This document shows positions 5,597 through 63,733 of a stretch of 63,733 bases of DNA, piece by piece. The notes under the pieces are model-generated. The model was not told where the DNA came from, did no database searches, and saw only the letters and a program-made list of their open reading frames with translations. The translations under genes and the position numbers were made by a program. The stretch is from a virus. Taxonomy: Duplodnaviria > Caudoviricetes. The stretch is taken from the IMG/VR virus record IMGVR_UViG_3300032722_000019, positions 1 through 63,733 of that record, one strand, 5' to 3'. The stretch's first letter is position 1. Every line of letters starts with the position of its first letter.

Positions 5597-5642
5597 GCTT
5601 CTTCTCCTGCTACTACTGTAGTCCTACCCCTGGTCGTTCCGG

Positions 5643-6101
5643 CTACCCCGCGTTGAAGAGTGCCGAGTTGATCAGGTAGTAGCCGCCGATGGTGACCACG
5701 AACCCGGCGTCCTCGCCCGCGAACGAGAGCTCGCGGATGTTGCGGATGGCACAGTTGTTCACCGGGTAGATGGGCACGCCGCCCGAGGCCTGGGAGACGT
5801 CGGGGTAGACCTGGCCGTTGCCCAGGAACGTGTTGGTCTGGCGCTGCTTCTCGTACAGCGCCGCCAGGTTCTGCGTCTTGAGCAGGGCCATCGTGATTAG
5901 GATGGGCTGGTAGGGCTCGGGCGACTGGACCTGGCCGGTCATCGTGTTGATGAACGTGGTGGCCTCTCCGTCGAACGAGATGGAGATGCCGGCCTTGCCC
6001 AGGTATGGCGCGGTCACGTTGAGCTCCGGGTGGTCGGTCCAGTATACGGAGCCGAGTACCCGGTTCAGGTTGCCCTGTGGGACGAGAGGATTGCCGGGCA
6101 T
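5643..6101 (-). CDS. Tail tube protein
   Basis: 152 aa gene directly after sheath; NPLVPQGNLNR N-terminus. Confidence 0.7.
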   Translation of the reverse strand: MPGNPLVPQGNLNRVLGSVYWTDHPELNVTAPYLGKAGISISFDGEATTFINTMTGQVQSPEPYQPILITMALLKTQNLAALYEKQRQTNTFLGNGQVYPDVSQASGGVPIYPVNNCAIRNIRELSFAGEDAGFVVTIGGYYLINSALFNAG

Positions 6102-23663: not shown

Positions 23664-24182
23664 TCAGCCGACCAGCTCCACGTCCGACCTCTGCACCTGG
23701 ACCGGCCGGCGGCCCCCCAGCATGCTCAGCAGGACGGTGACGCGCTCGTCGTTGGACCACTCCACGGGGGCCTCGAAGCCCTCGAACGCCCCCTGGGTGA
23801 TCTTCACCGTGCCCCCCACTGGGATGAGTTTGGAGACGGCCGCGTCCACGTGGCGCGCCTCCATGAGCCCGGAGCCCGAGCACTTCCCGATGAGCACGTC
23901 CATCATGCGCTGGTCCACGGGGGAGGGCACCTCGCTGGTCTCGGGCAGGAGGCGCCGCACGCCGCGGGTGTTGTTGACCCGCTGCCAGCCCTCTCGCTCG
24001 GTGTCCAGGTTGACGAATATGTAGCCCCGGATGTAGGGCACCTCCGTGGTGACTCGCCGGCCCTGCTGGACCCGGGACACCGCGCAGCGCGGGTTGAATG
24101 CCTGGAACCCCTGCCGGGACAGCTGGTCCTCGGCGGTGAACTCGGCGAGCGGCTTGACCGCCGCGACGCGCCATGCGTACAT
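23664..24182 (-). CDS. nusG: NusG/RfaH-family transcription antiterminator
   Basis: NGN domain (PYIRGYIFV, VNNTRGV) and KOW (GGTVKITQGAFEGFEA, RVTVLLSMLG). Confidence 0.88.
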   Translation of the reverse strand: MYAWRVAAVKPLAEFTAEDQLSRQGFQAFNPRCAVSRVQQGRRVTTEVPYIRGYIFVNLDTEREGWQRVNNTRGVRRLLPETSEVPSPVDQRMMDVLIGKCSGSGLMEARHVDAAVSKLIPVGGTVKITQGAFEGFEAPVEWSNDERVTVLLSMLGGRRPVQVQRSDVELVG

Positions 24183-31429: not shown

Positions 31430-32089
31430 ATGTCTGGATTTTCTTTCATCGACCTGTTCGCCGGCATCGGGAGCCTCCGCAGGGGCTTCGAGGGTGCCGG
31501 CGGCCGCTGCGTCTACACCTCGGAGTGGAACCCCAAGTCCCAGCAGACCTACAGGGCTAACTTCCCGCACGACGGGCACGGCATCGACGGCGACATCACC
31601 AAGGTGGACGCCGCTGCCGTGCCCGACCACGACGTGCTCCTGGCGGGCTTCTTCTGCCAGCCGTTCTCCATCGCGGGGGTCTCCGCCCGGAACAGCCTGG
31701 GCAGGGCCCACGGCTTCGCCTGCGAGGCGCAGGGCACCCTCTTCTTCGACGTGGCCCGCATTCTCAGGGAGAAGAGGCCCGCCGCGTTCCTGCTCGAGAA
31801 CGTCCGCAACCTTGTGTCCCACGACGGGGGTAACACGTTCCGCGTCATCCGCGGCGTCCTCGAGGAGGAGCTCGGCTACCGCGTCAGCTGGCGCGTCATC
31901 AACTCGCGGTCGTGGGTCCCCCAGAGCCGCAACCGGGTCTTCATCGCGGGCTTCAGGGACCACGGCCACTTCTCCCTAGGCACCCTGCTGGCGCCGCGTC
32001 CCGCACGCCGACCGCCGGGCGTTCTACAAGGCCGCCCGGGAGGGCACCAATGCCGAGTATCGGGCCGCGATGGAGAACGTCCTGACTAA
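31430..32089 (+). pseudogene. Truncated C5-cytosine DNA methyltransferase (Dcm-like)
   Basis: FIDLFAGIG (motif I), GFFCQPFS (motif IV, Pro to Phe), LENV (VI), PQSRNRVFI (VIII); target-recognition domain and motifs IX-X absent; homology ends near 31980. Confidence 0.8.
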
Positions 32090-32107: not shown

Positions 32108-32230
32108 ATGGACTCGTACGACGAAGGCTGGGAGGACTGGTTTGACGGCCTGCAGCCTCAGTCTGACGATCCCGAGTACCTGCGCGGCTGGAACGACGCC
32201 GACAACTCCTGCGAGGAGTGGCCCGGCTAA
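32108..32230 (+). CDS. 40-aa acidic Trp-rich peptide
   Basis: MDSYDEGWEDWFDG...YLRGWNDA; TGATG and TAATG coupling. Confidence 0.5.
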   Translation: MDSYDEGWEDWFDGLQPQSDDPEYLRGWNDADNSCEEWPG

Positions 32231-32661
32231 TGGACTTCCTCCTAAACGAGACCCCCGTGCCCTGGCTGCCGCTCTACCTGGACGAGCACGGTACCTTCGC
32301 CCTGGTCAGCGCCGAGGACTACCCCTGGGCCAGTCGGTTCTCCTGGAGGCCCAAGCCCGACAAGACCGGCCGCAAGCTGTACGCCGTGCGCAGCATGGAC
32401 GTCGGGCGCCCTGTCGGAAAGGACAGGGCCGGACGCAGGCAGGTCAGCATCCACCTCCACAAGGAGGTCTGCCTGAGGGCATTCGGGCCGCCACCCACTC
32501 CCCGCCACGTCATCGGGGACCACCTGGACGGCAACAGCCTGGACTGCCGCCGGAGCAACCTCCGCTGGGCGACGAGGAGCGAGAACAACATGAACCTCAA
32601 CGGTTGGTACGCCCGGCAGATGAGGCTGCCGTTGGAGGCCAGGGATGCGCGCTTACGATAA
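32230..32661 (+). CDS. HNH endonuclease
   Basis: DHLDGNSLDCRRSNLRWATRSENNMN. Confidence 0.85.
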   Translation: MDFLLNETPVPWLPLYLDEHGTFALVSAEDYPWASRFSWRPKPDKTGRKLYAVRSMDVGRPVGKDRAGRRQVSIHLHKEVCLRAFGPPPTPRHVIGDHLDGNSLDCRRSNLRWATRSENNMNLNGWYARQMRLPLEARDARLR

Positions 32662-36475: not shown

Positions 36476-36696
36476 CCCACGGCTTCAAGACGCGCCGGGG
36501 GGTCAAGACCTGCGACCCCTGCGGCCGGGACGAGGAGGGCCGCTGCGCGTCCTCCGGGACGACCCAGCCGGCCTGCTCGGACGCGCGCTGCCCCTGGAAA
36601 GACCCGGACGGCACGCCCGAGGCCATGAGTGCCCGCGTCGCGGAGCTCGAGAGCAGGTTCAACGTCTTCGGCTACGGTCCGGGGATCTGGCGATGA
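36472..36696 (+). CDS. Small Cys-rich protein
   Basis: GTG 36472 coupled; CDPC...C...C...CPW. Confidence 0.45.
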   Translation: MTHGFKTRRGVKTCDPCGRDEEGRCASSGTTQPACSDARCPWKDPDGTPEAMSARVAELESRFNVFGYGPGIWR

Positions 36697-37655
36697 CCTG
36701 GGAGGAAGAGGCCAAGAGGCTGACCCCCTGGGAGGAGCGCGGGGGCGTGCTGTTCAAGCGCGAGGACCTGTTCGCGCCGCTGTGCAAGAACGGCCCCAAC
36801 GGGGCCAAGTTCCGCCAGCTGCTGCACCTGTTCGCGCGCCACCGGGGCAACGCCACCCACGTGATGACCGCGGCCAGCGTGCTCTCGCCGCAGCACAGCA
36901 TGACAGCGGCGGTGGCCCACCACTACGGGCTGCCGAGTCTCCACATCATCGGGGCCACCACGCCCGAGAAGGCGGTGGCCAACCACGTCAACGTCCGGGT
37001 GGCCTCCCGCTTCGGGGCCAAGTTCGAGGCGATCAAGGTGGCGTACAACCCGGAGCTCCAGAGGGCACTGGAGCGCCGCCGCCGGCCCGACAGCTTCGTG
37101 GTGCCCTACGGCATCACCACCGCCCCTGACTGCTCGGAGGAGGACCTGAGGGCCTTCCACGAGGTGGGCGGGGTCCAGGTCAAGAACCTGCCCGAGCAGG
37201 TGGAGACACTGATCGTCCCGGCGGGCAGCTGCAACACTCTCACCAGCGTGATCTACGGACTGGTCCGGCACGGCCACGGGAACCTCCGGGAGCTCGTATC
37301 CGTCGGCATCGGGCCCGACAAGGTGGCCTGGGTCCAGGAGCGCCTGACCCGGCTGGGCGTGCGGCCACCGCTGCCCTTCAAGTGGAACCGCCGAGTGTCC
37401 CTGCACGAGAGTGGGTTCGCGGCCTACGGGGACCGGATGCCGGAAGAGTACTACGGCCTGCAAGGGCACCCTACTTATGAGGGAAAAATCCTTCGCTGGA
37501 TGAAGAGGCACGGCGTCCTCCCTCCCCGCGACAAGGGCCTGGGCTTCTGGATCGTGGCCGGCGAGATGAGCGAGAAGGCCGTGGAGAAGAAGTACCCGGT
37601 CGAGGGCCTCAACGACAGCATCAAGGACCTGTTCAGCGTGCAGTTAGCACCATAA
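36693..37655 (+). CDS. PLP-dependent enzyme (fold type II), probable DNA-modification decarboxylase
   Basis: FKREDL, NGAKFRQ, SPQ, PAGSCN and HPTYEGK motifs; adjacent to hypermodification genes. Confidence 0.8.
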   Translation: MTWEEEAKRLTPWEERGGVLFKREDLFAPLCKNGPNGAKFRQLLHLFARHRGNATHVMTAASVLSPQHSMTAAVAHHYGLPSLHIIGATTPEKAVANHVNVRVASRFGAKFEAIKVAYNPELQRALERRRRPDSFVVPYGITTAPDCSEEDLRAFHEVGGVQVKNLPEQVETLIVPAGSCNTLTSVIYGLVRHGHGNLRELVSVGIGPDKVAWVQERLTRLGVRPPLPFKWNRRVSLHESGFAAYGDRMPEEYYGLQGHPTYEGKILRWMKRHGVLPPRDKGLGFWIVAGEMSEKAVEKKYPVEGLNDSIKDLFSVQLAP

Positions 37656-37665
37656 GGAGAGAACT

Positions 37666-38043
37666 ATGAAGAAGAAACTCTTGATCGGTCTCGCGCTCCT
37701 CGCCCTAGTGGGGTGCGACCGCGATGCCGACGTGGCCCAGAAGAACCTAGCCCAGGACGCAGACAACTTCAAGATCCCCAGGCGCATCGCCTTCATCAAC
37801 GGGATCACGGACAAGTACCTCCTGGAGATCACGGGCTTCTGCGCGTTCAAGGCCTCCGATGAGACCAAGAACGTGCTCAACGTCATCTGCAAGGTCGACG
37901 GAGGCTACAAGAAGCACTCCATCGGCCTCTCGGACAACGTGACGTTCGTGAGCGAGCAGCTGGCCCCGCGGGACGTCAGCACCTCGCTCTACCACGTGAC
38001 GTTCAAGCCGGCCACGCTGGTCCCCGACGTCGAGCTGCGGTAG
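37666..38043 (+). CDS. Phage lipoprotein
   Basis: Signal peptide with lipobox LVGC; ADNF...RRIAFINGITD motif. Confidence 0.75.
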   Translation: MKKKLLIGLALLALVGCDRDADVAQKNLAQDADNFKIPRRIAFINGITDKYLLEITGFCAFKASDETKNVLNVICKVDGGYKKHSIGLSDNVTFVSEQLAPRDVSTSLYHVTFKPATLVPDVELR

Positions 38044-38051
38044 GCGCGCAG

Positions 38052-38327
38052 ATGAAGGCCGGTACGCACGTCCGCACGCCCGACGGCCGCGAGTGGACGG
38101 TCGTCTACCACGGTCCCGACGGCTACGGGGTCGTGGAGGGACGCCGGACCCTGACCGAGGACGAGCTCAGGAACATACACCTGGGCGGCCCGTTCTCCAG
38201 GGAGGCACTGGCTGAGGCCGTCAAGGCTACCCACATGCTGCGGGACTCCGTCTCGCCGACCATGGACGAGCGCATGTGGCCCGGAATGACGCTGATCGGC
38301 GAAGAGTTCGAGAGGATCGCGGAATGA
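38052..38327 (+). CDS. Hypothetical protein
   Basis: Coupled to next gene by ATGA. Confidence 0.55.
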   Translation: MKAGTHVRTPDGREWTVVYHGPDGYGVVEGRRTLTEDELRNIHLGGPFSREALAEAVKATHMLRDSVSPTMDERMWPGMTLIGEEFERIAE

Positions 38328-39343
38328 AGGACTACCGCACCCCCGAGCACCGCGGCGAGTACTTCGCCGCGCTCTACGAGACCAACCTCCGGCACGGCAC
38401 CATGCCGGGGCTCGTCTACCTCTACATGCCGGCGCTGGCGCACGCCCTGGGCTGGGACGAAAAGACCAAGCTGTGGTTCGCGTTCCTCAACGGGATGACG
38501 CAGAACCCGCTGACTAGCCTGCGCCTTCTCGAGCAGCTGCCCGAGCCGCCCGAGAACAAGATAGCCCTAGCGGTCTTCAAGCAGTGGTTCGACGCGGAGT
38601 GGCCCCGACTTCAATACGACACCGATCGGCGCTACGCCAAGAAGGAGACCTGCGAGGCCATCAAGAGCTACTGCTGGGCGGCGGCCGCTTTCGGAGACTC
38701 TCAGACGACTCCCCAGGTCGACATGCTGAGCCTTAGGTCTTGGGAGGCCATTTGGGGCTTCGTGACTTCCTCCTTCCGCAGCTTCGGCCGGCTCTCGGCC
38801 TTCAGCTACCTGGAGTACGTGCGAATCATGGGCCACGGCTGCGAGCCCGATACCCTACTATTCTCCGACAAGTCGGGCAGCAAGAGCCACCGCAACGGCA
38901 TGCTGTTCCTGACAGGCCTGGACGAGCTGGTGAACGACAAGCGGACCGGCCGGGGCCCCGTGGCCTACGAGAACTTCGGCAAGATGTGTGTATGGCTCCA
39001 AGAACGCGCCGACATCTGGCAGGCCGCCTTCAACGAGATGGAGGCGCGGAAGGGCTCGACGCTGCGGGCCACCAACTTCACCTTCGAGAGCCAGCTGTGC
39101 CAGTTCAAAAACTCCTTCTTCGGCCGGCGCTACCCCGGGGTCTACGCAGACATGGCCTGGGAGCGCCTCCAGTGGTACAAGACCAACGTGGGGCAGGACA
39201 GGAACTGCCGCCTGATCGCCGACATCTACCACTCCCTGCCCGACTGGCTCCAGTACGGAAATGACCGCTTGACCGTCAGGCAGAGAGCGGCTATATTCCC
39301 CCGCACGGGCGTGCCCTACCGAGCAGAGCACTTCCTAGAATAG
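38324..39343 (+). CDS. Amino acid:DNA transferase (aGPT-Pplase2/ADDT-like)
   Basis: Start ATG 38324; YDTDRRY, FGRLSAFSYLE, SHRNG, ESQLC and RYPGVY motifs. Confidence 0.75.
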   Translation: MKDYRTPEHRGEYFAALYETNLRHGTMPGLVYLYMPALAHALGWDEKTKLWFAFLNGMTQNPLTSLRLLEQLPEPPENKIALAVFKQWFDAEWPRLQYDTDRRYAKKETCEAIKSYCWAAAAFGDSQTTPQVDMLSLRSWEAIWGFVTSSFRSFGRLSAFSYLEYVRIMGHGCEPDTLLFSDKSGSKSHRNGMLFLTGLDELVNDKRTGRGPVAYENFGKMCVWLQERADIWQAAFNEMEARKGSTLRATNFTFESQLCQFKNSFFGRRYPGVYADMAWERLQWYKTNVGQDRNCRLIADIYHSLPDWLQYGNDRLTVRQRAAIFPRTGVPYRAEHFLE

Positions 39344-39356
39344 CGAGATAGCACTC

Positions 39357-39896
39357 ATGGAAATCTACACCCAGGCCCTCATATTCGCGGTCCGCGCCCA
39401 CGGGGACCAGAAGCGCAAGTACACCAACGATCCCTACGTCGTCCACCCCATCCGCGTGGCCGAGATACTGCGGGAGGCGAAGGCCCCAGAGGTCATAGTC
39501 TCCGCCGCGCTCCTGCACGACACGGTGGAGGACACGAAGACGACTTACCAGGACCTCGTCATGGAGTTCGGTCCGGCCATGGCAGACCTCGTCATGGAGG
39601 TCACGGACCCCAGCCGGCCCGAGGACGGCAACCGCGCCGCGCGCAAGGCCATCGACAGGGAGCACCTGGCCCGGGCCAGCGTGTACGGGAAGACCATCAA
39701 GCTGGCGGACCTCATCGACAACACCGCCAGCATCGTGAGGTACGACCCCGACTTCGCCAGGGTCTACCTCGCCGAGAAGAGGCTACTCCTGCAGGAGGCG
39801 CTGAGGCCCGTCGGGGCGTTCCATGACTGGCAGAGTGTCCACGGCAGGCTCTACGCGAAGGCACTGGCCCAGATGGAGACTCTATGCCTAAGCTGA
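39357..39896 (+). CDS. RelA/SpoT-type HD hydrolase (small alarmone hydrolase/Mesh1-like)
   Basis: AH.DQKRK, PY..HP..VA, ALLHDTVEDT and IKLADLIDN motifs. Confidence 0.85.
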   Translation: MEIYTQALIFAVRAHGDQKRKYTNDPYVVHPIRVAEILREAKAPEVIVSAALLHDTVEDTKTTYQDLVMEFGPAMADLVMEVTDPSRPEDGNRAARKAIDREHLARASVYGKTIKLADLIDNTASIVRYDPDFARVYLAEKRLLLQEALRPVGAFHDWQSVHGRLYAKALAQMETLCLS

Positions 39897-40468
39897 TCAT
39901 CAACCTGCGCGGCACGTCCGGCTCCGGCAAGACCACGGTGGTCCGCCGGCTCATGGGGCTGGGCGAGGTCGAGAATATGAGGACAACCGACGGGAAGATC
40001 GCAGGGGTTCGCCTAGAGGTTCCACGCTGGAGCCACGCCGTGTTCTTCATCGGCAAGTACGACAGCGTCTGCGGCGGGATGGACACCGTGCCCACGCAGG
40101 CCGACTGCTCCACCCTGATCCATCGGGCATACGATCATGGCCACGTAGTCTGCGAGGGCCTGCTAGCCTCCGGGGTCGGGCCCAAGGCTACCCTGCCCGC
40201 GGCGTGCATCGCGGCGGCCGGCCCCAACGCCTGGTTCCTCTGCCTGGACACGCCGCTAGAGGTTTGCATCGAGCGCGTCAAGCAGCGCCGGGCCGCCCGG
40301 GGCGACGACCGCCCGTTCAACCCGGCCAACACCCAGGCCAAGTGGGAGCAGACGCGCCGGGCCTACGAGCTCCTGGAGGAGGGCGGAGCCAACGTGCGCT
40401 GGCTGCCCTACGAGACGGCCTACGAGAAGGTCCGCGCCATTCTGGAGAAGGTTGATGCCGCGGACTGA
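39884..40468 (+). CDS. P-loop kinase (5-hmdU DNA kinase catalytic domain-like)
   Basis: NLRGTSGSGKTT, IGKY...CGGMD, VVCEG and C.ERV.QRR motifs; cluster context. Confidence 0.75.
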   Translation: MPKLIINLRGTSGSGKTTVVRRLMGLGEVENMRTTDGKIAGVRLEVPRWSHAVFFIGKYDSVCGGMDTVPTQADCSTLIHRAYDHGHVVCEGLLASGVGPKATLPAACIAAAGPNAWFLCLDTPLEVCIERVKQRRAARGDDRPFNPANTQAKWEQTRRAYELLEEGGANVRWLPYETAYEKVRAILEKVDAAD

Positions 40469-40739
40469 ACCGAGCCTCTGGAAGGCCAAGCACAGGGTCT
40501 CTAAAGAGGACGACGGTCGGGCCTTGACCTACTTCTGCGACGACAAGCGCCACCTGGTGTGCCAGCCGTATAGCCTGGAGAACCTCCACGTCATGGCCCA
40601 GCGCCTCGGCCTCAAGCGCCACTGGTTCCACAGGGACCACTACGACATCCCGGTCAAGCGCCGGGCTGAGATCGAGAACCTGTGCATCCACCTGACGGCG
40701 CGGGACATCGTGCGCATCTGCCGGGGAGGCAAGGAGTGA
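40452..40739 (+). CDS. DUF4031-like protein
   Basis: LH.MAQRLGLKRHWF..DHYDI. Confidence 0.7.
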   Translation: MMPRTEPSLWKAKHRVSKEDDGRALTYFCDDKRHLVCQPYSLENLHVMAQRLGLKRHWFHRDHYDIPVKRRAEIENLCIHLTARDIVRICRGGKE

Positions 40740-41611
40740 GCAGCGACCTGCGCGGCCTGGTGGCGTTCGTCCGGGAACGGGAAACGATTCGCTTGAAGAG
40801 GCACCTCGGAGAGCTCGCGCCCTGGACGGACGACCCGATCCTGGCCAAGTACCGTTTCTGCAACGTGAGGCGCGGAGACGACCGAGTCTCGCAATGGCTG
40901 CTGAAGAAGTACTACCCGAGGTTTGATCCTCGGGGAGACCTCTGGTTCGCGGCCGCCGTGGCACGCCTGATCAATTGGCCGCCGACCCTGGCGTGGCTCA
41001 TGGAGAGGTCCGTGACCTGCGACATGGTCGACGCCTACGATGCCCATGACTTCTCCAGAGAACTCGAGAAGTACCACCATGAGAACCCCGGCAAGACTTA
41101 CACCGGGGCATACATGCTCTACGCCGGGGGCAGGCAGGCGCGGTTCAAGGGGATGGCCAAGGCCGACTTCATCGCGCACCACCTGCTCGCGGGGCTGACC
41201 GTCAGCCGCGACATAATCAGGCTGGCCGTCTCGAGCAGGAGCGTGGAGGCCACCGTGACGGCGCTCCAGCACTCCTTCGGTATAAGCTCGTTCATGGCGG
41301 GTCAGGTCGCGGCTGACCTGACCTACCTTCCTCTCCAGCTGGGTCAGGCTCGAGATCTCTACACCTGGGCCCCCCGCGGCCCTGGGTCCTTGCGCGGCCT
41401 CAACCGCCTCCACGGTCGGCCGCTGAACAACCAGTGGGACCAGGACCACTTCAACGATGCGTTGAAAAAGGTTAACTGGGCAATTGGCCCCGGCTTGGGC
41501 CTCACCCTGCACGACGTCCAGAACGTCCTGTGCGAGTGGGACAAGTACGAGAGGGTGCGGCTCGGGCAGGGCGTGCCCCGGTCGCAGTACAGGCCCGAGA
41601 CGGCATATTAA
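40736..41611 (+). CDS. 5-hmdU DNA kinase helical domain (aGPT-Pplase1-like)
   Basis: Start GTG 40736; PWTDDPIL.KYRFCNVRRGDDRVS, GPGS.RGL and LCEWDKY motifs. Confidence 0.8.
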   Translation: MSSDLRGLVAFVRERETIRLKRHLGELAPWTDDPILAKYRFCNVRRGDDRVSQWLLKKYYPRFDPRGDLWFAAAVARLINWPPTLAWLMERSVTCDMVDAYDAHDFSRELEKYHHENPGKTYTGAYMLYAGGRQARFKGMAKADFIAHHLLAGLTVSRDIIRLAVSSRSVEATVTALQHSFGISSFMAGQVAADLTYLPLQLGQARDLYTWAPRGPGSLRGLNRLHGRPLNNQWDQDHFNDALKKVNWAIGPGLGLTLHDVQNVLCEWDKYERVRLGQGVPRSQYRPETAY

Positions 41612-41633
41612 GCAGCCAGGAGAGGAGAAGAAG

Positions 41634-42650
41634 ATGACCTACGCACTGACGGCCCGCAACCCCAACGAGGCGTTCCCCATGACCGTGAGGATGCTGAGGG
41701 ACCACGGGGTGCGGCTGCCGAGCCGCAACGGCGACTGCCTGGAGTTCCCGGACGTGGTCAGCGTGACCTTCACGCATCCCCTGGAGCGGGTGCTGACCAA
41801 TCCGCTGCGCCGGATCAACCCGTTCCTGCACTTCTTCGAGCCTCTGTGGATCCTCGCCGGCCGGCGCGACGTCGGCTTCCTCGCGCAGTTTGCCAAGAAC
41901 ATGACGAACTACAGCGATGATGGCGAGAATTTTGCCGCGGCCTACGGTCACCGGATCAGGCACGTGCCCTCTTCTTATGAGGGAGACCCAGACATCGATC
42001 AGATTTACGAGGCCGTAGTTCGTCTGAAGGCGGACCCGGATGACCGCCGCGTGGTTCTCATGATCCGACAGCCTCTAGACATCGGCTACACCGGCAAAGA
42101 CGCGGCCTGCAACATCGCGGCCAGCCTGAAGATCCGCGGCGGCCGGCTCAACATGCACGTCATGAACCGCAGCAACGACGCGGTCTGGGGCGGCCCGGCC
42201 GGCGGAACCAACCACCCGCAGTTCACTGTCCTGCTGGAGTTCATGGCCGGGATGATCGGCTGCGAGGTGGGGCGCTACACGATCACCACCGACAGCATGC
42301 ACGCCTACGTCAACCCCCAGTGGGAGAAACTGAGGGACACGCCGGCCTACGCAGACCCCTACCAGTCGGCCTCCCACGACTACCGACCGTTCCCCATGAT
42401 GGAAGAGCCCGTCCTCTTCTGCACGGACCTGACGGCCTTCTTCGAGACGTACGACGACGGCCGTATGCGCCCCTACTCCAGCGTCTACTTCCGCCGGGTG
42501 GTCCTGCCCATGTGGGAGACCTTCCTCTCCTACAAGGCGCGCGACGGCCGGGAGCGCGAGCTCCTGGAGAGGGTGGCGGCCGCGGACTGGCAGGACGCCG
42601 TCAGCCAGTGGTTCGACGGCATCGAGCGCCTCCAGAGGCCCTTCTCGTGA
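41634..42650 (+). CDS. Thymidylate synthase-family dUMP hydroxymethylase
   Basis: Start ATG 41634; NPFLH, YSDDG, AAYG.R, catalytic ACN, RSND..WG and downstream Asn consistent with dUMP specificity. Confidence 0.8.
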   Translation: MTYALTARNPNEAFPMTVRMLRDHGVRLPSRNGDCLEFPDVVSVTFTHPLERVLTNPLRRINPFLHFFEPLWILAGRRDVGFLAQFAKNMTNYSDDGENFAAAYGHRIRHVPSSYEGDPDIDQIYEAVVRLKADPDDRRVVLMIRQPLDIGYTGKDAACNIAASLKIRGGRLNMHVMNRSNDAVWGGPAGGTNHPQFTVLLEFMAGMIGCEVGRYTITTDSMHAYVNPQWEKLRDTPAYADPYQSASHDYRPFPMMEEPVLFCTDLTAFFETYDDGRMRPYSSVYFRRVVLPMWETFLSYKARDGRERELLERVAAADWQDAVSQWFDGIERLQRPFS

Positions 42651-43186
42651 GTGTCCTGCGGGCGGTGTCCTGGGCCTACCGCAAGGCCCGGACGCTGCGC
42701 TTTCACACTCACTTCTGCACCCGGCAGGAGACCATCGGCCACCACTCCCACGGCGTGGCGGTCATCGTGTCCCTGGTCTACCCGGACGCCAGCGCCGACC
42801 TGCTCAGGGCCGCGGTCCTGCACGACCTGGGAGAGGGCGAGTGGGGCGACATGCCGGGCCACACCAAGCGCGAGCTCGGCATCCGGGAGGCCGTAGCCGT
42901 CCTGGAGGAGCGAGAGATGCGCAGGAACGGCGTGGAGATGCCGACGCTGAACGCCGAAGAGCACCGCAGGCTCAAGTTCGCCGACAACGCCCACGGCGCG
43001 CTCTTCTCCATGGAGGAGCTCTCTAGGGGCAACCGGGAGCTCCTGGGGCCCTTCCGCAACTACGTGGAGTGGATGGAGAAAGAGCCGATGCACCTGCTAG
43101 GCGAGCAGGAGCTCTTCGAGATGATCAGGCGACGGTTCTTCAGGCATTCTACCGAAGGTGTGAGAGATGAAGTCTTCGAGTTCTGA
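42647..43186 (+). CDS. HD-domain 5'-deoxynucleotidase-like protein
   Basis: Start GTG 42647; RFH, HHSHGVA, LHDLGE..GD.P and KFAD motifs. Confidence 0.75.
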   Translation: MSVLRAVSWAYRKARTLRFHTHFCTRQETIGHHSHGVAVIVSLVYPDASADLLRAAVLHDLGEGEWGDMPGHTKRELGIREAVAVLEEREMRRNGVEMPTLNAEEHRRLKFADNAHGALFSMEELSRGNRELLGPFRNYVEWMEKEPMHLLGEQELFEMIRRRFFRHSTEGVRDEVFEF

Positions 43187-43427
43187 GGCGGACAAGCGCC
43201 AGGTCGGCGGCGGCCATTACAAGGACGTCCCCGAGCACCTCCAGCACTGGAACGTGGTCGCGGCCCTGGGCTGGGATTATTTCATCGGCACGGCCACCAA
43301 GTACATCTGGCGGGCCGGCAAGAAGGACGACCCCGTCCAGGAGCTCGAGAAAGCGGTGCACTACCTCCAGAAGAAGATCGAGCTCCTCAGGGCCGAGCGC
43401 GCGGCCGCGGAGAAGCAAGTTGGCTGA
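43167..43427 (+). CDS. DUF3310 (SaV-like) protein
   Basis: QVGGGHYK, KYIWR and LEKAVHYL motifs. Confidence 0.8.
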   Translation: MKSSSSEADKRQVGGGHYKDVPEHLQHWNVVAALGWDYFIGTATKYIWRAGKKDDPVQELEKAVHYLQKKIELLRAERAAAEKQVG

Positions 43428-45366
43428 CGGAGAGGTCGCCTTTTTAGACACGGAGAGCTACGCCAACGCGGCGCTCTTCATGTGCCAGACCGAGGGCGGC
43501 CGCCTGTTCAAGGCCTGGGTGGAGGGCCCGAACGGTCCGGCGGCGGACTACGTCCGGGCGGTCATGGCCTCGGGCTACACGTTCGTGACCTTCAACGGCA
43601 TCAACTACGACATGCCGGTGGTCAGCGCCATGATCGACGGCCGGGGCCCGCACGAGATCAAGCACCTCTCCAACCGCATCATCGAGGGCGGCCTGATGCC
43701 CTGGGAGGCCGCCGACGAGTTTCGCCTGCCGCCAAACCTGGCGGGCGTGGACCACATCGACCTCATCGGGGTCAGGCCGCCCAACGCCGGCCTCAAGATG
43801 GCCGCGGCCCGGATGGGCTCCCCGCACCTGGAGGAGAACCCTATCGACCACCGCTCGGAAATCGCCCCGGCGCAGTACCCCGGCGCCGAGCGGTACTGCA
43901 TGAGCGACCTCCGCAACACCCGGATGCTGTTCGGCCGCTGCGAGCAGCCGCTCCTGCTGCGCTGCCAGATGAGCCGCGAGTACGGCGTGGACCTGCGGAG
44001 CAAGAGCGACGCCCAGGTCGCCGAGCAGGTGTTCGTCAAGAAACTGGGCCTCAAGAGGAAGTGGGGCGAGAACGCCCGCATACCTCCGGTGGTGCGCTAC
44101 CGCGCGCCGGCCTGGGCCCAAAGTTTCCAGAGCCCGGGCCTGCGCGCGCTGGTGGCGCGGCTGGAGGACACGATCTTCCACGTCCACCAGGGCAGCGGCC
44201 ACGTGGCCATGCCCTCCTGGCTGGAGGCGGCCTCCCCGGAGTCGCGCCTGACCTCCCGGACCGGCGTCTTCCAGATGGGCGTGGGCGGCCTGCACAGCAC
44301 CCACGACAAGAAGGTCTGCCACGTCGCCGGGCCGGACTGGCGCGTCACGGACGTGGACTGGGACTCCTACTACCCCACGCTGATCGTCAACGCCGACCCC
44401 GAGATACTGCCGCCCCACCTGGGCGAGGCGTTCATCACCGAGTACGACAACATTCGGCGCATCCGCCTGGAGGCCAAGCGGGTCAAGGACGTCTCCAAGG
44501 CCGACAGCCTGCGCATCGCGGTCAACGGCACCTTCGGCAAGCTGATGTCGCGCTGGTCGCCGCTGTACGCCCCGGGCCTGGGCCTGTACACTACCCTGAC
44601 CGGGCAGCTGGGGCTGCTGGGCGCGGTCTACGAGGTCCTGGAGCCCGCCGGCTGCTCCATACTGAGCGCCAACACCGACGGCATCGTCATCGGGCACCCG
44701 GCGGGGGTGGACGCCGCGGCGCTGATGGCGGAGTACGCCGCGGTCATGAGCGAGGGCGGCCGCGCGCCCTACGGCGTGGAGGCCACCTCCTACCGCACCA
44801 TCGCGATGAAGGACGTCAACAACTACATCGCGGTCAAGGCCAAGGATCGCTCGGTCAAGGCCAAGGGGCTGTACGCCCCGCTGGACAAGATGATGAAGAA
44901 CCCCACCCTGCCGGTCTGCTCGGAGGCGGTGGGCAAGTGGCTGGCCCACGGCGTCCCCTTCGAGAGGACGCTGGCCGAGGCCCACCAGCGGCGCTACCTG
45001 CCCGACTGGCTGGCCGCGCGGCGCGTCAACGGCGGGGGCGTCCAGGGAGAGAAGACGGTGGGCAGCCTGGTCCGCTGGTACTTATCAACCGACCCCGGAC
45101 TTCCGCCCTTGACTTATGCGCTGAATGGCAATAGAGTACCCAAGACCGAGGGCGTCAGGGCCTGCATGATCTTCGATCCTGCGGCCCCGTTGCCGGCGGA
45201 CCTAGACACTCTAGCATATAACAAGGAATGCATCAGGATAGCCAAGGACCTGGGCTGCTCCCAGTACCTGTCAGAGGAACAGCTGGCACTCGTCGCGCCG
45301 CCCCCGAAGGCCGGCCGCAAGAGGAAGGCCGTCACCGAGTCCCCAGAGAAGGAAGCGTCAGCATGA
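43420..45366 (+). CDS. DNA polymerase (family B-like) with 3'-5' exonuclease
   Basis: DTE and FNGINYD exonuclease motifs; DWDSYYP, NGTFGK and SANTDG polymerase motifs. Confidence 0.9.
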   Translation: MADGEVAFLDTESYANAALFMCQTEGGRLFKAWVEGPNGPAADYVRAVMASGYTFVTFNGINYDMPVVSAMIDGRGPHEIKHLSNRIIEGGLMPWEAADEFRLPPNLAGVDHIDLIGVRPPNAGLKMAAARMGSPHLEENPIDHRSEIAPAQYPGAERYCMSDLRNTRMLFGRCEQPLLLRCQMSREYGVDLRSKSDAQVAEQVFVKKLGLKRKWGENARIPPVVRYRAPAWAQSFQSPGLRALVARLEDTIFHVHQGSGHVAMPSWLEAASPESRLTSRTGVFQMGVGGLHSTHDKKVCHVAGPDWRVTDVDWDSYYPTLIVNADPEILPPHLGEAFITEYDNIRRIRLEAKRVKDVSKADSLRIAVNGTFGKLMSRWSPLYAPGLGLYTTLTGQLGLLGAVYEVLEPAGCSILSANTDGIVIGHPAGVDAAALMAEYAAVMSEGGRAPYGVEATSYRTIAMKDVNNYIAVKAKDRSVKAKGLYAPLDKMMKNPTLPVCSEAVGKWLAHGVPFERTLAEAHQRRYLPDWLAARRVNGGGVQGEKTVGSLVRWYLSTDPGLPPLTYALNGNRVPKTEGVRACMIFDPAAPLPADLDTLAYNKECIRIAKDLGCSQYLSEEQLALVAPPPKAGRKRKAVTESPEKEASA

Positions 45367-48232: not shown

Positions 48233-48625
48233 ATGAAGGAATACTTGGATCAGTGGACCCTCGGGCAATTGATCGACGCCCTGGAGGCCGTCGGCGACAA
48301 GGCGAACGCCTGCCGCTTTGACTTCTGCCACGCCGTTCCCGGAAAGCTCGACAGCTATCGGGGATACTACGAGGACCTGGCGCTGGGCTGGGAACCGCAG
48401 ACAAATTATCCAGAGCCGACCGTGGCGCACGTTCTGGACACTCTGAAGAAGCAGATCGGAACCACCGTTCACGGCTACAAGGGGGGTGACTACGTCGTCT
48501 CGCGCGATCAGACAGTCTATGTGGCCAACTACGGAGAGACTGGCTCCACCGGCATCGTCGGAGTCGACAGCACCTATACGACCGTCATCCGAACGGTCTG
48601 CACAGACCCGGCACCCGACCGATGA
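48233..48625 (+). CDS. Conserved phage protein
   Basis: TLGQLI, SYRGYY.DLA and GYKGG motifs. Confidence 0.65.
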   Translation: MKEYLDQWTLGQLIDALEAVGDKANACRFDFCHAVPGKLDSYRGYYEDLALGWEPQTNYPEPTVAHVLDTLKKQIGTTVHGYKGGDYVVSRDQTVYVANYGETGSTGIVGVDSTYTTVIRTVCTDPAPDR

Positions 48626-49110
48626 TACCGGACGGCCGCGCCGTGATCATCGGCATGAACAACGAGGACGGCGGGGAGGCGCTCGCGCTGCACCCCGCCA
48701 CGCGCGCCGGGGCCCGATTGCTGAAGTTCTCCGGGATGACCCGCGACGAGATGATAGCGGGCTTCCAGCGAGTCAACCTCCTGTACGCCCAGTCCTGGGT
48801 CATGACGGAGGCCCGCCGCGCCGCCGACCGGCTGATGGAGCACCTGGGCGGCCGCACCTGCGTGGTGCTGGGCCGAGACGCGTGGCGCGCGCTGGGGCTC
48901 CCCCACCAGGCCAGGTTCTGGGAGCGGCACACGCACCGCTTTGTGGCCGGCTTCCCGCCGGCCGAGACCGAGGCGTGCTTCTACTCCATCCCGCACCCCT
49001 CGGGGCTGAACCACTACTACAACCGCAGAGACAACCAGAAGAAGGCCGCAGAGGTGCTCTACGACGCCCTGCGCCGCAGCAAGGAGAAGTCAGTTGTCAG
49101 CCACGCCTAG
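48622..49110 (+). CDS. Uracil-DNA glycosylase-fold protein (divergent)
   Basis: IIGMN, AGARL, VNL, VVLGR and IPHPSGLN motifs. Confidence 0.55.
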   Translation: MIPDGRAVIIGMNNEDGGEALALHPATRAGARLLKFSGMTRDEMIAGFQRVNLLYAQSWVMTEARRAADRLMEHLGGRTCVVLGRDAWRALGLPHQARFWERHTHRFVAGFPPAETEACFYSIPHPSGLNHYYNRRDNQKKAAEVLYDALRRSKEKSVVSHA

Positions 49111-60376: not shown

Positions 60377-61462
60377 TCAATTCGTGTTCACGATGAACTG
60401 GTACTGGAAAGGGAGCTCGAGCGCGCCGGCCTCCACCGCCGCCTTGAAGATCGGGATGTAGGGCGACGTCGGCAGCGCGATGGACGTGGTGTTGAGCTCG
60501 TTGAAGGCCGAGGTGTTGAAGGCCCCCGTGTTGAAGGTGGCCCCCGACTGCGCGAAGCGGCGCGTCGTCTGCAGGTTGATGTCTATCTGATTGCCCGCGC
60601 CGAAGGTCACGGACACCTGGTAGGTCTGGTCCGTCTGGCCCGGGCCGCCGTCGGTGCCGGTGAGGAACCTCTGGACGCGGCGCTTGAGCCATCGGACGTC
60701 GAAGGTACGGCCGTCCCCGCGCCACAGGTGCCAGGTGAGGACGCGCTTGAACACGTCGTCCGAGGTGACGTAGAAGCTGGCCGGCCCGAGCAGCTTGAAG
60801 TCGTTGAACGGGATGGTGTTGAACGCGGCGGTGTTGAAGGGGCCCAGCATCTTGGACAGGCCGGCCGGCAGCACCGGGCGCTGGATGCCGTAGATGCCGG
60901 CCGCCACCCAGTCCAGCAGCTTGCCGGTGATCAGAGGACCTGTGTAGACGGGCAGGGAGATGTTGGCGAACCAGCCGATGTACGACTGGGCCATCTGGTT
61001 GTAGGCGTCCACGAACGCCTGGAGGTCCTCGTCGTCGTTGTACTGCTGGTAGAGGTAGCTGGGCAGGCCGCCAGTGACCGTGGTGGGGCCGGAGGGCGGG
61101 AAGCTGCCCGCGGCCGGCGGGACGTACCCCGGCGGGGGCTGCACCACGACCCCCGCCACGCGGTGGCCGGCGGAGGCCGCGTTGATGGAAACGCCCAGAC
61201 CCGCGTAGTTGTCCGGTATCCTGAAGCGACCGCCGGGCTGCACCATGACGCAGGTCCCGGTCTGCCCCAGGACCGCGGGGTTCACGCAGTCCACGTAGAG
61301 GGCCTCCGCCGCGGGCAGCCCCTGGGAGGCCGCCGTGGCCGGGTTGACCACGTAGCCTCCCAGGCAGGGGCCGTAGGCCACCGTTACCGGGCGACCCCCC
61401 GTGGTGACCACGGAGTTGACCAGGGGCCAGACCTTGGTCGGGGCGGTGACGAGCCTGACCAC
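60377..61462 (-). CDS. Baseplate wedge subunit (DUF2612-like)
   Basis: Start GTG 61462; SYLYQQYNDD and LLDWVA.GIYG motifs; follows baseplate J. Confidence 0.7.
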   Translation of the reverse strand: MVRLVTAPTKVWPLVNSVVTTGGRPVTVAYGPCLGGYVVNPATAASQGLPAAEALYVDCVNPAVLGQTGTCVMVQPGGRFRIPDNYAGLGVSINAASAGHRVAGVVVQPPPGYVPPAAGSFPPSGPTTVTGGLPSYLYQQYNDDEDLQAFVDAYNQMAQSYIGWFANISLPVYTGPLITGKLLDWVAAGIYGIQRPVLPAGLSKMLGPFNTAAFNTIPFNDFKLLGPASFYVTSDDVFKRVLTWHLWRGDGRTFDVRWLKRRVQRFLTGTDGGPGQTDQTYQVSVTFGAGNQIDINLQTTRRFAQSGATFNTGAFNTSAFNELNTTSIALPTSPYIPIFKAAVEAGALELPFQYQFIVNTN

Positions 61463-63138
61463 TATCCCTGCACCACATTGATGCCGGTCGCCGCCGCCGT
61501 GAAGTAGGACAGCGGGTCGCCCACGATGATCTCGGTGCCTGCGTCGGGCGGGGTGCCCACGCCGTCTATGGAGACCGAGAACACCAGCCTGGTCAGCAGG
61601 TAGGGAGCCAGGATGCTCTCTATGGAGGCCTGGAATACTGCGTTCATCTCCAGGAGGTTGAGCGGCTGGCCGGTCGGCACGCTGTTGACGTAGTCCGCCA
61701 GCGCGGGAGCCGCGGCCTGGGCCACCGCCGTGGTGCTGACGAAGTTCGGCGAGGAGGTGTTCCAGACCACCGTCATGGTAACGTTCTGCGGCGGCGGGCT
61801 CACGTAGGGGATCTGGTAGGTGTCCGGGTAGTCCGTGATGGTGACCAGGACGTTGCGCAGGTTGGGGGTGATTACCCCGCCGCTGACCCAGTCCGAGAGG
61901 CCCGAGGTGTCGTAGTTGGCCGTTCCCGCCAGCACCTGTCCAAACGTCGCGGCGGGGGAGGTCAGGGTGGTGGTCTGGGCCGCCAAGATGGTGGTGCCGG
62001 AGGTGCCTGCGAGGGCCGTGTAGTTCCCGTTGTAGCCGGCGGGGGAGGCCCCCGAGACGGTGAAGGATGAGCCCGGCGTGATGCCGTGCGGGGTCGCCGT
62101 GGTCCCCGTGATTCGACCGCCCGCGGTGCTGGCCCAGGTCAGGTTGGACAGGTTGATGGCGGGGAAGGCCGTGCCTAGGGAGAACGAGGTCTCCGTCGGC
62201 ACCGCCAGGACCACGAAGTTTCCGCTGTACCCGCTGGGGGTGGCGCCCGTGATCTTGACCGCCTGCCCCGGGGAAAAGAGGTGGTTGATGTTGGTGGTCA
62301 CCACGCCGGGGTTGGCCTTGGTGACGCCGATGACCTCCAGCGTGGAGCCCACCAGGTTGGCGATGTCGGGCACCGCCTGGTAGATGGCGTAGGCCACCTG
62401 GTAGGGGTCCCCACCACCGCACACGATCGTCCACTTGCCGGTGGACTGGTCCGCCACCGCCGAGACCAGGCGCGTCTGCACGTTGGGCACGTTGCCGAGC
62501 AGGGTCTTCAGGTAGGAGAGCATCCCCTGGGAGGCCGCCAGCTGGGCCTGGAGCACGCGGGCGCGGTAGGAGGTCTCTGTCTCGGCCCCGGTGCCGGGGG
62601 TGCCGGGCACGCGGTTGGTGAAGGTCAGCGGGAAGCCGCTGGGGACGGAGGTGACCCGCTGGCTGACCGTGCCGGCCGGGACGGACCAGGTGCCCCCCTG
62701 AGTGGCCAGCGCGAACAGCTGCTGGCTCTCTCCGTCCGAGCCGATGACGCCGCCGTCCACCAGCGCGTACTGGAAGGTGCCGTCCGAGACCAGGAAGCCC
62801 TTGCCCAGGACGAAGCCAGGGTTGCCCGTGAAGGTCACCAGCACGCTGGTGTTGCTGCCCAGGCCGATAGGCACCCCCGTCTGCTGCCCCACCTGGGCCA
62901 GGACGAAGGCGTTGGCACCCACGGGGCTGATGCTGTTGATCAGCTCCACCAGGCCCTGGTTGAGCAGGATCAGCGCGCCGGTGTCCGTGGAGGCGATGTC
63001 CTCCGTCAGGGTGCCCGGCAGGTTGAGCGTGGCCTTGGGGTTGATCTTGGCGACCAGCGTGAGCAGCGCTTGCAGCAGGTCCGCCGGGGGCGTGGGGGCC
63101 AGGCCCGCGGGGCCCAGTACGACGGGGAGGTCGGTCAT
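61462..63138 (-). CDS. Baseplate J-like wedge protein with inserted beta-barrel domains
   Basis: NLPGTL.EDIAST and ET...YRARV motifs. Confidence 0.8.
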   Translation of the reverse strand: MTDLPVVLGPAGLAPTPPADLLQALLTLVAKINPKATLNLPGTLTEDIASTDTGALILLNQGLVELINSISPVGANAFVLAQVGQQTGVPIGLGSNTSVLVTFTGNPGFVLGKGFLVSDGTFQYALVDGGVIGSDGESQQLFALATQGGTWSVPAGTVSQRVTSVPSGFPLTFTNRVPGTPGTGAETETSYRARVLQAQLAASQGMLSYLKTLLGNVPNVQTRLVSAVADQSTGKWTIVCGGGDPYQVAYAIYQAVPDIANLVGSTLEVIGVTKANPGVVTTNINHLFSPGQAVKITGATPSGYSGNFVVLAVPTETSFSLGTAFPAINLSNLTWASTAGGRITGTTATPHGITPGSSFTVSGASPAGYNGNYTALAGTSGTTILAAQTTTLTSPAATFGQVLAGTANYDTSGLSDWVSGGVITPNLRNVLVTITDYPDTYQIPYVSPPPQNVTMTVVWNTSSPNFVSTTAVAQAAAPALADYVNSVPTGQPLNLLEMNAVFQASIESILAPYLLTRLVFSVSIDGVGTPPDAGTEIIVGDPLSYFTAAATGINVVQG

Positions 63139-63509
63139 TGGAGGGGTGCCCGCACGTAGATGGGTGGGATCTTGGACCCGTTCTTGGTGATGATCGAGAC
63201 GCCGTAGGTCGGCGTGGGATCCTGCGTCTTGGCGATGGTCAGCGCGGCGAAGTAGGGCGAGAACCGCTGGGCCGCGAGCGTGACGTAGAGGTCTGGAGCG
63301 ACCTGCTGCTGGACGCTGGTCTTGGCCGGGATGCCCCAGTCTCCGTAGAAGGGGGACTCGTTGAGGTTGAGCTTCAGGGCCTGCGCCAGCCAGGTGATGG
63401 TGAGCGCGTCGTTGTTGCCGAGCGCGTCCGTCTCCACCATCTCCCAGGGTCCGAACACCTGCCTCCCCGAGGCGTCGGTGCCGACCACGGGCCTGCCGTA
63501 GATCCTCAC
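63135..63509 (-). CDS. Baseplate/sheath initiator protein
   Basis: Start GTG 63509 (MRIYGR); LNLNESPFYGDWGIPA motif. Confidence 0.65.
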   Translation of the reverse strand: MRIYGRPVVGTDASGRQVFGPWEMVETDALGNNDALTITWLAQALKLNLNESPFYGDWGIPAKTSVQQQVAPDLYVTLAAQRFSPYFAALTIAKTQDPTPTYGVSIITKNGSKIPPIYVRAPLQ

Positions 63510-63538
63510 GAGGGCGGGTCCGGCAGCACGGGCGGATG

Positions 63539-63733
63539 GGGCGGATGATTGTTCACGGTCACCCCCTGCGTGTAGTCGTCTATGACCCAGGCCCCCGGGC
63601 CGGTCTGCGTGATGCGCATGCCGCACCCGCCCACGTCGTAGCTGAAGGACTTCGCGCCGTAGATGATCACGTTACCCTCCTTGTCGATGGCGATCCTGAC
63701 CGTGGAGCCGTTGGGGCCCGGGCCGTTCTCTCC
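63539..63733. repeat. Terminal direct repeat, right copy
   Basis: Matches 1-195 with one mismatch. Confidence 0.95.

Follow-up and report, generated by a model that had tools for sequence, protein, structure and literature searches.

Does the cluster of genes at 36693-43427 of the IMG/VR virus record IMGVR_UViG_3300032722_000019 form a working pathway for the hypermodification of thymidine, and which base would it make? The window analysed here is that whole record, a stretch of 63,733 bases to which CheckV assigns a completeness of 100%. The block consists of eleven open reading frames (ORFs) on the plus strand, directly 5' of the DNA polymerase gene (Table 1). We consider it rather probable that the block encodes a working pathway of the type found in phage ViI, built on a replication layout like that of phages M6 and PaMx11, and that its product is 5-(2-aminoethoxy)methyl-2'-deoxyuridine (5-NeOmdU). 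This reading is based on homology, catalytic residues, predicted fold and conserved synteny, from which the chemical steps, the amino acid and the extent of thymidine replacement are inferred. The pathway is of a known kind; what is new is that it occurs in this virion lineage and is compactly laid out.

The ORFs of the window were annotated with Pfam (74 ORFs), PHROGs and NCBIfam. A first-pass annotation had listed a pyridoxal phosphate (PLP) enzyme, an amino acid:DNA transferase (ADDT), a P-loop kinase, a kinase helical domain, a dUMP hydroxymethylase, an HD nucleotidase and a DUF3310 protein before the polymerase. All seven elements were recognised by Pfam, PHROGs or BLASTP on the plus strand of this interval, with the polymerase gene adjoining them. 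The gene list therefore held as to presence and failed as to order, since the genes follow one another differently and four further ORFs, which had gone unnamed, lie inside the block. The ORFs have a high GC content at third codon positions (GC3), as elsewhere in the genome, and are spaced by 8-22 bases or overlap at their stop and start codons. Among 50,697 phage records, none was matched by megablast with the 6.7-kb block.

Table 1. Genes of the modification block and the adjoining polymerase gene
Feature	Position	Strand	Evidence
Fold-type II PLP enzyme, ViI gp226 homologue	36693-37655	+	phrog_3650 E 1.4e-66; predicted Schiff-base lysine K39
VG64-family lipoprotein	37666-38043	+	PF25682 E 4e-46; signal peptide and lipobox (…LVGC)
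91-residue ORF	38052-38327	+	No Pfam, PHROG or NCBIfam match
ADDT, clade-2 aGPT-Pplase	38324-39343	+	PF18724 49.6 bits, cut-off 26.2; Glu255...Cys259 motif
Stand-alone RelA/SpoT-type HD hydrolase (HD_4), 179 residues	39357-39896	+	PF13328 58.2 bits
P-loop 5-hydroxymethyl-2'-deoxyuridine (5-hmdU) DNA kinase (5-HMUDK)	39884-40468	+	BLASTP homology; Walker A GTSGSGKT
DUF4031 protein, between the kinase and HMUDK_hel genes	40452-40739	+	PF13223 46.8 bits
HMUDK_hel protein (formerly clade-1 aGPT-Pplase), M6 gp55 homologue	40736-41611	+	PF18723 142.8 bits
Thymidylate-synthase-like (TS-like) dUMP hydroxymethylase (predicted)	41634-42650	+	PF00303 65.5 bits; C159, N160, N193
YfbR-like HD 5'-deoxynucleotidase	42647-43186	+	PF12917 31 bits
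DUF3310 protein, 86 residues	43167-43427	+	PF11753 31.9 bits
DNA polymerase	43420-45366	+	phrog_1252 E 3.2e-116

The amino acid:DNA transferase

The window ADDT carries an E-S-x-x-C motif, in which Glu255, Ser256 and Cys259 align with Glu243, Thr244 and Cys247 of PaMx11 gp46 and with the matching residues of the ViI enzyme. Cys247 of PaMx11 gp46 is the proposed nucleophile attacking C6 (PMC11472151), and the cysteine together with a nearby glutamate is described as essential in M6 gp51 and ViI gp247 (PMC8989533). A transferase phylogeny, which the first-pass annotation had named as a check, was calculated by maximum likelihood from 20 transferases, 11 metagenome relatives included. The window protein, these 11 relatives, the ViI serine:DNA transferase gp247 (YP_004327568), Montesquieu_42 and Zemanar gp3 together make up a clade of 100/100 support on a long branch, apart from the glycine transferases (M6 gp51, PaMx11 gp46 and that of phage Bhz59) and from the polyamine-type enzymes (PhiW-14 gp109 and SH-Ab 15599). 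The window ADDT is thus, by clade membership, kin to the serine enzyme gp247, and serine would be its presumed substrate. The nearest cultured homologues are the Montesquieu and Zemanar proteins with 33-34% identity, no cultured phage being closer than 34%, and a BLASTP comparison with M6 gp51 gave no match.

In Zemanar, one of the cluster B mycobacteriophages, the ADDT homologue gp3 directly follows gp2, which is annotated as queuine tRNA-ribosyltransferase (785-2826 of that genome). This neighbourhood is apparently a different and seemingly unexplored context for the transferase clade.

The PLP enzyme

The first gene of the block encodes a protein with 37% identity to ViI YP_004327553 (orf00226) over residues 16-247 (E 8.1e-42). 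YP_004327553 is gp226, the PLP-dependent decarboxylase that converts O-serinyl-thymidine (O-SerT) to 5-NeOmdU (Lee et al. 2021, PMC8989533). A match of E 1.1e-42 was also found to MONT_41 of phage Montesquieu, the 'ACC deaminase' (1-aminocyclopropane-1-carboxylate deaminase) gene beside the ADDT of that phage, and no homologue was matched in the phi_M6 or Zemanar records. The score against the Pfam family PALP is 18.1 bits, for a cut-off of 35. Lys39 shares an alignment column with Lys92 of the ViI protein and Lys36 of the M6 protein, both of which are proposed internal-aldimine lysines (PMC8989533). Beyond this lysine the window enzyme has many motifs in common with gp226, and 95 positions are invariant over 43 homologues.

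An AlphaFold2 model calculated from the alignment of these 43 homologues has a pLDDT of 84.2 and a pTM of 0.85. The best matches in a fold search with the model were D-cysteine desulfhydrase (4d9e, E 1.6e-12, TM 0.65) and an ACC deaminase homologue (1j0a), the latter being the template reported for gp226 (PMC8989533). Threonine deaminase and serine dehydratase are further folds of this kind in the Protein Data Bank (PDB), and a PDB search by sequence yielded nothing meaningful, the best E value being 0.84.

The kinase and the helical-domain protein

BLASTP identities of the P-loop kinase are 34% with PaMx11 gp49 (E 2e-26) and 30% with M6 gp54 (E 1.5e-12). Both are listed as 5-hmdU DNA kinases, and an assay of M6 gp54 is described (PMC8989533). 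The window kinase is closer to the M6 kinase than to those of ViI, as the matches to ViI-like phages lie near E 9e-4. The HMUDK_hel protein shows 34.5% identity to M6 gp55 and 38% to a protein of Stenotrophomonas phage Bhz59; its GTG start codon at 40736 overlaps the preceding stop codon and has the motif GGAGG upstream. In SP10 gp186, a tested kinase of 637 residues, the kinase and helical domains are fused. Because of this fusion, comparison with SP10 suggests that the window kinase and HMUDK_hel act together, HMUDK_hel probably being the DNA-binding partner of the kinase.

The TS-like enzyme and nucleotide supply

The whole pathway hinges on the TS-like enzyme. In phmmer comparisons with the window protein the TS-like protein of PaMx11 scored 206 bits, followed by M6 (169), SPO1 gp29 (150), SP10 (128) and ViI (95), and at the low end by PhiW-14 (54), Escherichia coli ThyA (39.5) and exon 1 of T4 td (21.8). 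A tree of 20 rows, with E. coli as its one bona fide ThyA, places the window protein in an 18-member group of phage TS-like proteins with a support of 84/94. This group includes SPO1 gp29, which we take to be a dUMP hydroxymethylase, and the proteins of SP10, M6, PaMx11, ViI and PhiW-14, with E. coli ThyA and T4 gp42 outside. The nucleophile Cys159 is kept, as are Arg31, Arg179 and Asn193, the last at the position of E. coli Asn177. The window protein and all the phage TS-like proteins have in common a Cys-Asn pair where ThyA has Cys-His, the motif FSDDG and a C-terminal extension of about 100 residues. The PF00303 score of the window protein falls within the range of 50.6-84 bits spanned by the TS-like genes of SP10, SPO1, ViI and PhiW-14 and by T4 gp42; T4 td scores 214.6 plus 83.3 bits. 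Six NCBIfam equivalogs of thymidylate synthase gave 57.5, 56.6, 45.2, 39.1, 37.9 and 36.9 bits for cut-offs of 174.55, 327, 405, 108.35, 325 and 327, respectively. The identity of a bona fide ThyA was rejected, every one of these cut-offs being missed. Together, the residues, scores and grouping support the prediction that the TS-like protein supplies 5-hmdU as a dUMP hydroxymethylase.

M6 and PaMx11 each encode a homologue of the YfbR-like HD protein in the equivalent position. As a candidate dTMP nucleotidase, the window protein would keep thymidine from the DNA. M6, PaMx11 and Bhz59 likewise have a DUF3310 gene in the matching place. In T7 gp1.7, an annotated nucleotide kinase, DUF3310 is the C-terminal domain (residues 122-184, 81.5 bits); the window protein is this domain alone, and BLASTP to gp1.7 gave a match of only 16 residues (E 0.002). 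Judged by the shared Pfam domain alone, it might be a candidate 5-hmdUMP kinase module. The polymerase is 33-36% identical to those of Achromobacter, Burkholderia, Pseudomonas and Vibrio phages, has no BLASTP match in the M6 locus, and must accept 5-hmdUTP if thymidine is replaced.

Outside the block, the protein of the ORF at 48622-49110 (plus strand) weakly resembles uracil-DNA glycosylases, with a score of 23.3 bits for PF03167 that is below the cut-off, and has 30% identity to an ORF 5' of the M6 modification genes (L002:2139-2645). It may be one of the tools of phages passing through dU-rich pools.

Comparison with known pathways

The first-pass annotation had recognised no gene for a radical S-adenosylmethionine (radical SAM) enzyme or a dCMP deaminase, and this was borne out by six-frame profile searches of the whole 63,733-base record. 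Radical SAM (PF04055) gave zero matches at E <= 1, with a positive control in 14 of 14 genomes; dCMP/cytidine deaminase likewise gave zero matches at E <= 1, the control being positive in 13 of 14. Since no radical SAM gene was found, the PLP step would need an adduct that already has a free alpha-amine, following the logic set out in PMC8989533.

The ViI route to 5-NeOmdU employs the kinases gp67 and gp243, the serine:DNA transferase gp247 and the PLP decarboxylase gp226 (Lee et al. 2018; Lee et al. 2021, PMC8989533). The window resembles ViI, a member of the Ackermannviridae, in its gp226-type PLP enzyme, its ADDT of the gp247 clade, its TS-like hydroxymethylase and its lack of a radical SAM step. 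However, the genes of ViI are scattered, with gp226 at about 140.5 kb, gp247 at about 151 kb and the TS-like gene at about 37.5 kb, whereas those of the window form one block of 6.7 kb. ViI also has two kinases where the window has a single one of the M6/PaMx11 type, its genome is 157 kb rather than 64 kb, and the virions are unrelated. The ViI-type route thus appears here as a compact single-operon form in a complete, high-GC genome of 64 kb.

With M6, which makes 5-(2-aminoethyl)-2'-deoxyuridine (5-NedU), and PaMx11, which makes 5-N-acetylaminomethyl-2'-deoxyuridine (5-AcNmdU), the window shares a homologous kinase (30-34%) and HMUDK_hel protein (31-35%), and the gene order of kinase, helical protein, TS-like enzyme, YfbR-like HD protein, DUF3310 protein and polymerase. 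Both are Pseudomonas phages of the Mesyanzhinovviridae, whereas the window encodes a tail sheath and baseplate. The Gly-type ADDT, the PLP type, the radical SAM isomerase, Nmad5 and the dCMP deaminase of M6 were not found in the window. A pathway of the M6 type leading to 5-NedU was rejected, as no isomerase was found in the six-frame search, the ADDT lies outside the M6 clade and the PLP enzyme, unlike one of the M6 gp52 type, has no match in the phi_M6 record. A pathway of the PaMx11 type leading to 5-AcNmdU was also rejected, as Pfam detected no FAD-dependent lyase or acetyltransferase family among the 74 window ORFs. The Glutamicibacter phage Montesquieu is similar in having an ADDT with an adjoining PLP enzyme (36-37%) along with clade-1 and TS-like genes, while the record of Zemanar differs by the lack of a PLP homologue. 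The virion types of both are different from that of the window.

Distribution of the module among uncultured phages

Among 2007 candidates, 612 relatives of the ADDT were found at E <= 1e-10. The best 120 of them are all at least 50% identical, and none carries a functional name. The identical ADDT protein was seen on 24 contigs; a contig of 67,702 bases likewise carries it. When IMG/VR was scanned with the ADDT sequence alone, no relative was found, and an alignment of 23 ADDT homologues yielded 101, of which 80 loci were kept. A kinase-query search of IMG/VR v2 and GOV2.0 has been described before, in which contigs near dUMP hydroxymethylase genes held permuted PLP, radical SAM and flavin enzymes and aGPT-Pplase2 (Lee et al. 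2021, PMC8989533).

The 80 loci were compared with 26 window proteins by tblastn; many loci end at contig edges, so that the counts are lower bounds. The ADDT was found in all 80, the kinase in 79, HMUDK_hel in 76, the TS-like enzyme in 75, the YfbR-like HD protein in 72 and the DUF3310 protein in 70. The polymerase and the PLP enzyme each occur in 64 loci, Pam3_gp32 in 46, Sak4 in 45, the single-stranded DNA-binding protein in 41, a Cas4-like exonuclease in 40 and the primase in 32. The shared string of genes persists at protein identities of 31-64%, and the loci have a median GC content of 52% (range 29-67%). Because the same string recurs in 80 related loci, the clustering is not due to chance. 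The first-pass annotation had called the gene set distinctive, which does not stand in view of this recurrence of the core string.

Some loci lack the PLP gene. No replacement tailoring enzyme was recognisable among 19 ORFs upstream in such relatives; these ORFs held a second HMUDK_hel, a pyrimidine-dimer glycosylase, a primase and a YuA_Gp49 domain. In one PLP-less relative (L031), the genes of the second HMUDK_hel and of the pyrimidine-dimer DNA glycosylase lie 5' of the ADDT gene at 2738-3562 and 5633-6052.

Proposed pathway and alternative explanations

Based on the comparisons above, we propose the following pathway. The TS-like enzyme would convert dUMP to 5-hmdUMP, which the DUF3310 protein and host kinases might raise to 5-hmdUTP, while the YfbR-like HD protein would strip thymidylate. 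Incorporation by the phage polymerase would yield DNA with 5-hmdU in place of thymidine. Part of the 5-hmdU in the DNA would then be phosphorylated to 5-phosphomethyl-2'-deoxyuridine (5-PmdU) by the P-loop kinase, probably aided by HMUDK_hel. Cys259 of the ADDT would attack C6, the phosphate would leave, and an amino acid, most likely serine, would be joined through its side chain to give O-serinyl-thymidine. Finally, the PLP enzyme would engage the free alpha-amine in a Schiff base and decarboxylate the adduct to 5-NeOmdU, and the modified DNA would be shielded from host nucleases. The steps foreseen by the first-pass annotation, from 5-hmdU through phosphorylation and amino acid attachment to PLP decarboxylation with no radical SAM step, are supported by homology to tested enzymes.

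Several observations weigh against a ViI-type pathway ending in 5-NeOmdU. The window ADDT is about 26% identical to ViI gp247 by BLASTP, and the ViI branch of the ADDT tree is long (2.29), a long-branch meeting being flagged by the tree program; for these two reasons serine specificity is unreadable from the tree. Residues that govern the choice of amino acid are unnamed in the accessible text of the ADDT literature (PMC8989533, PMC11472151). Among solved structures, the PLP enzyme is closest in fold to lyases and deaminases rather than to decarboxylases, and about eight of the 80 loci have no PLP gene despite enough upstream sequence. The kinase scores 23.9 bits with the profile HMUDK_HMUD1, below the cut-off of 27; of the known kinases, PaMx11 gp49 scores only 18.1 and M6 gp54 65.1. 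M6 gp55, the homologue of HMUDK_hel, is described as dispensable in vitro (PMC8989533). Besides the dCMP deaminase missing from the six-frame search, no dUTPase or dTTPase was recognisable in the record.

Within the same architecture, the amino acid joined by its side chain might not be serine but, for example, threonine, homoserine, cysteine or a diamino acid, in which case the decarboxylated product would be an undescribed thymidine derivative. The low identity to gp247 favours this, as do the separate subclades formed by the window ADDT and its environmental relatives, the chemically uncharacterised state of the Montesquieu and Zemanar proteins and the lack of a functional name for the best relatives. 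The specificities of the enzyme family already comprise glycine, serine and putrescine (PMC8989533), and a diaminopropane-derived modification is also reported (PMC13458397). However, the PLP enzyme is clearly of the gp226 type, serine is the sole substrate shown for the clade, and none of the 74 window ORFs was recognised by Pfam as a gene for making an unusual amino acid or amine. We therefore regard a non-serine product in this phage as possible but unlikely, and judge in the same way the wider proposal that a large, wholly uncultured ADDT branch, the 612 relatives from phages of 29-67% GC, installs such an amino acid. If true, an undescribed thymidine derivative would be present in this phage and in many environmental relatives, and the modification module would move as a cassette between unrelated virion types.

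The end of the pathway might differ instead, if the PLP enzyme eliminates, deaminates, racemises or is inactive, so that the final base would be the intact amino acid adduct or 5-hmdU. Its best folds, which are those of D-cysteine desulfhydrase, ACC deaminase, threonine deaminase and serine dehydratase, would fit such an activity. Several relatives moreover carry the ADDT, kinase and TS-like genes with no PLP gene within up to 10 kb, from which an undecarboxylated end product seems viable. Yet ViI gp226, with the same fold assignment, is shown to decarboxylate O-SerT (PMC8989533), the window protein retains the lysine and many motifs of gp226, and the number of positions invariant among its homologues argues for a conserved activity, making this outcome quite improbable. 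That the bulk of the virion DNA has ordinary thymine, either because dTMP is the product of the TS-like enzyme or because the module is no more than a remnant, we consider highly improbable. The lack of a recognisable dTTP-excluding enzyme or dCMP deaminase and the low Pfam score of the kinase would agree with it. However, all the catalytic residues are retained (Cys159, Arg31, Arg179 and Asn193 of the TS-like enzyme, Glu255 and Cys259 of the ADDT and Lys39 of the PLP enzyme), the ORFs are all intact with the high GC3 of the genome, the TS-like protein groups with hydroxymethylases and misses the cut-offs of the ThyA equivalogs, and the module is conserved in the 80 loci. The pathway leading through serine to 5-NeOmdU is therefore the one that we prefer.

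DNA with hypermodified thymidines resists many restriction enzymes and is harder to sequence and clone. The enzymes that make these bases, namely a DNA base kinase, amino acid:DNA transferases and a DNA-acting PLP decarboxylase, are of use for DNA labelling, and reconstitution should be easier from a compact operon than from the scattered genes of ViI. Chemically, the main point at issue is the amino acid used by this abundant branch of transferases.

Virion lineage and mosaic genome

The contractile-tail virion genes are located on the minus strand and include the sheath (6105-7763), portal, large terminase and major capsid protein, whereas the replication block occupies the plus strand from about 31 kb to about 52 kb. 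The phage had been described as Bcep781-like in the first-pass annotation. This description was not upheld, as a tblastn search of the whole Bcep781 genome with 46 window proteins gave a match for only one of them (E <= 1e-3), to a NUDIX domain. Kinship with the Bcep781-like myoviruses (Naesvirus) was also rejected in view of the capsid, none of whose 14 matches in the phage collection is from a Burkholderia phage. By contrast, Pantoea phage PdC23 (Certevirus) has, within its first 19.2 kb, counterparts of 20 of the 46 proteins in colinear order from terminase to baseplate, with identities of 23-52%. The 14 capsid matches (39-47% identity) belong to Klebsiella phages Chronis, RothC and RothD, five Yersinia vB_YenM phages, PdC23 (two records), and Shewanella, Hujiaoplasma, Actinobacillus and Rac-SA53 phages; the capsids of Chronis, the Yersinia phages and PdC23 are 46-47% identical. 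At such identity the window virion is, as judged from its proteins, a distant relative of Certevirus and Chronis that stands outside the genus.

The window shares colinear head, tail-sheath and baseplate genes with PdC23, Chronis and Yersinia phage vB_YenM_29.18. Unlike the window, these three phages, of 44-48 kb, have no ADDT or TS-like gene; neither gene was found in any of the five cultured capsid relatives examined (PdC23, Chronis, vB_YenM_29.18, vB_Sb_QDWS and vB_Apl-pPE4), the ADDT search being positive in ViI, PhiW-14 and the window record as controls. Among cultured relatives, the pathway is thus as unusual for the virion lineage as had been supposed. Conversely, homologues of the window capsid and sheath were found in none of five module-carrying IMG/VR relatives rated 99-100% complete. 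One of these has 22 large ORFs outside the module, among them terminase subunits, a DNA-ejection protein and tail fibres, and no sheath.

Because the five cultured capsid relatives have neither the ADDT nor the TS-like gene, the genome is best read as a mosaic, in which a Certevirus-like virion module is combined with a replication and modification module that circulates among other phages. Across the join neither GC content nor codon bias shifts, so that the join is not recent; per 2-kb window of the record the GC content is 64-72%. The module is hence present in a lineage in which none of the five cultured relatives examined has it, and it is common to a large uncultured group. This spread fits the view of these genes as a modular pool (Lee et al. 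2021, PMC8989533).

In the head region, the gene at 13453-15468 (minus strand) encodes a protein of 671 residues in which a NUDIX domain at the N terminus is joined to a DUF2213/protease-like part. PdC23 has an annotated protein of this same arrangement, and the NUDIX part of the window protein is the sole Bcep781 match, which falls under gp17.

Other genes of the block and the record

Homologues of the VG64 lipoprotein, the 91-residue ORF, the HD_4 protein and the DUF4031 protein were found in none of the 80 related loci by tblastn, and the four ORFs are therefore read as inserts outside the pathway. The VG64 family is labelled recombination directionality factor in PHROGs, a doubtful label for a lipoprotein. 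The HD_4 protein matches the N-terminal hydrolase region of TIGR00691 with 85.4 bits and is probably a small alarmone hydrolase. As its domain is of the RelA/SpoT hydrolase type and it is absent from all 80 loci, a role as the dTTPase of the pathway was set aside.

Baseplate genes lie at both ends of the record (1-633 and 61462-63626, minus strand); because they are split in this way, the record is a circular permutation of the genome. No tRNA genes were found in it. The ORF at 31430-32089 (plus strand) encodes a C5-cytosine DNA methylase that covers only profile positions 1-164 of 324 and is directly followed by an HNH endonuclease gene (32218-32661, plus strand). The C-terminal half of the methylase was sought downstream of the HNH gene and none was recognised; the methylase gene is possibly truncated or split. 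Adjoining the packaging genes is the gene of a NusG-like transcription factor at 23664-24182 on the minus strand (PF02357, 58.1 bits).

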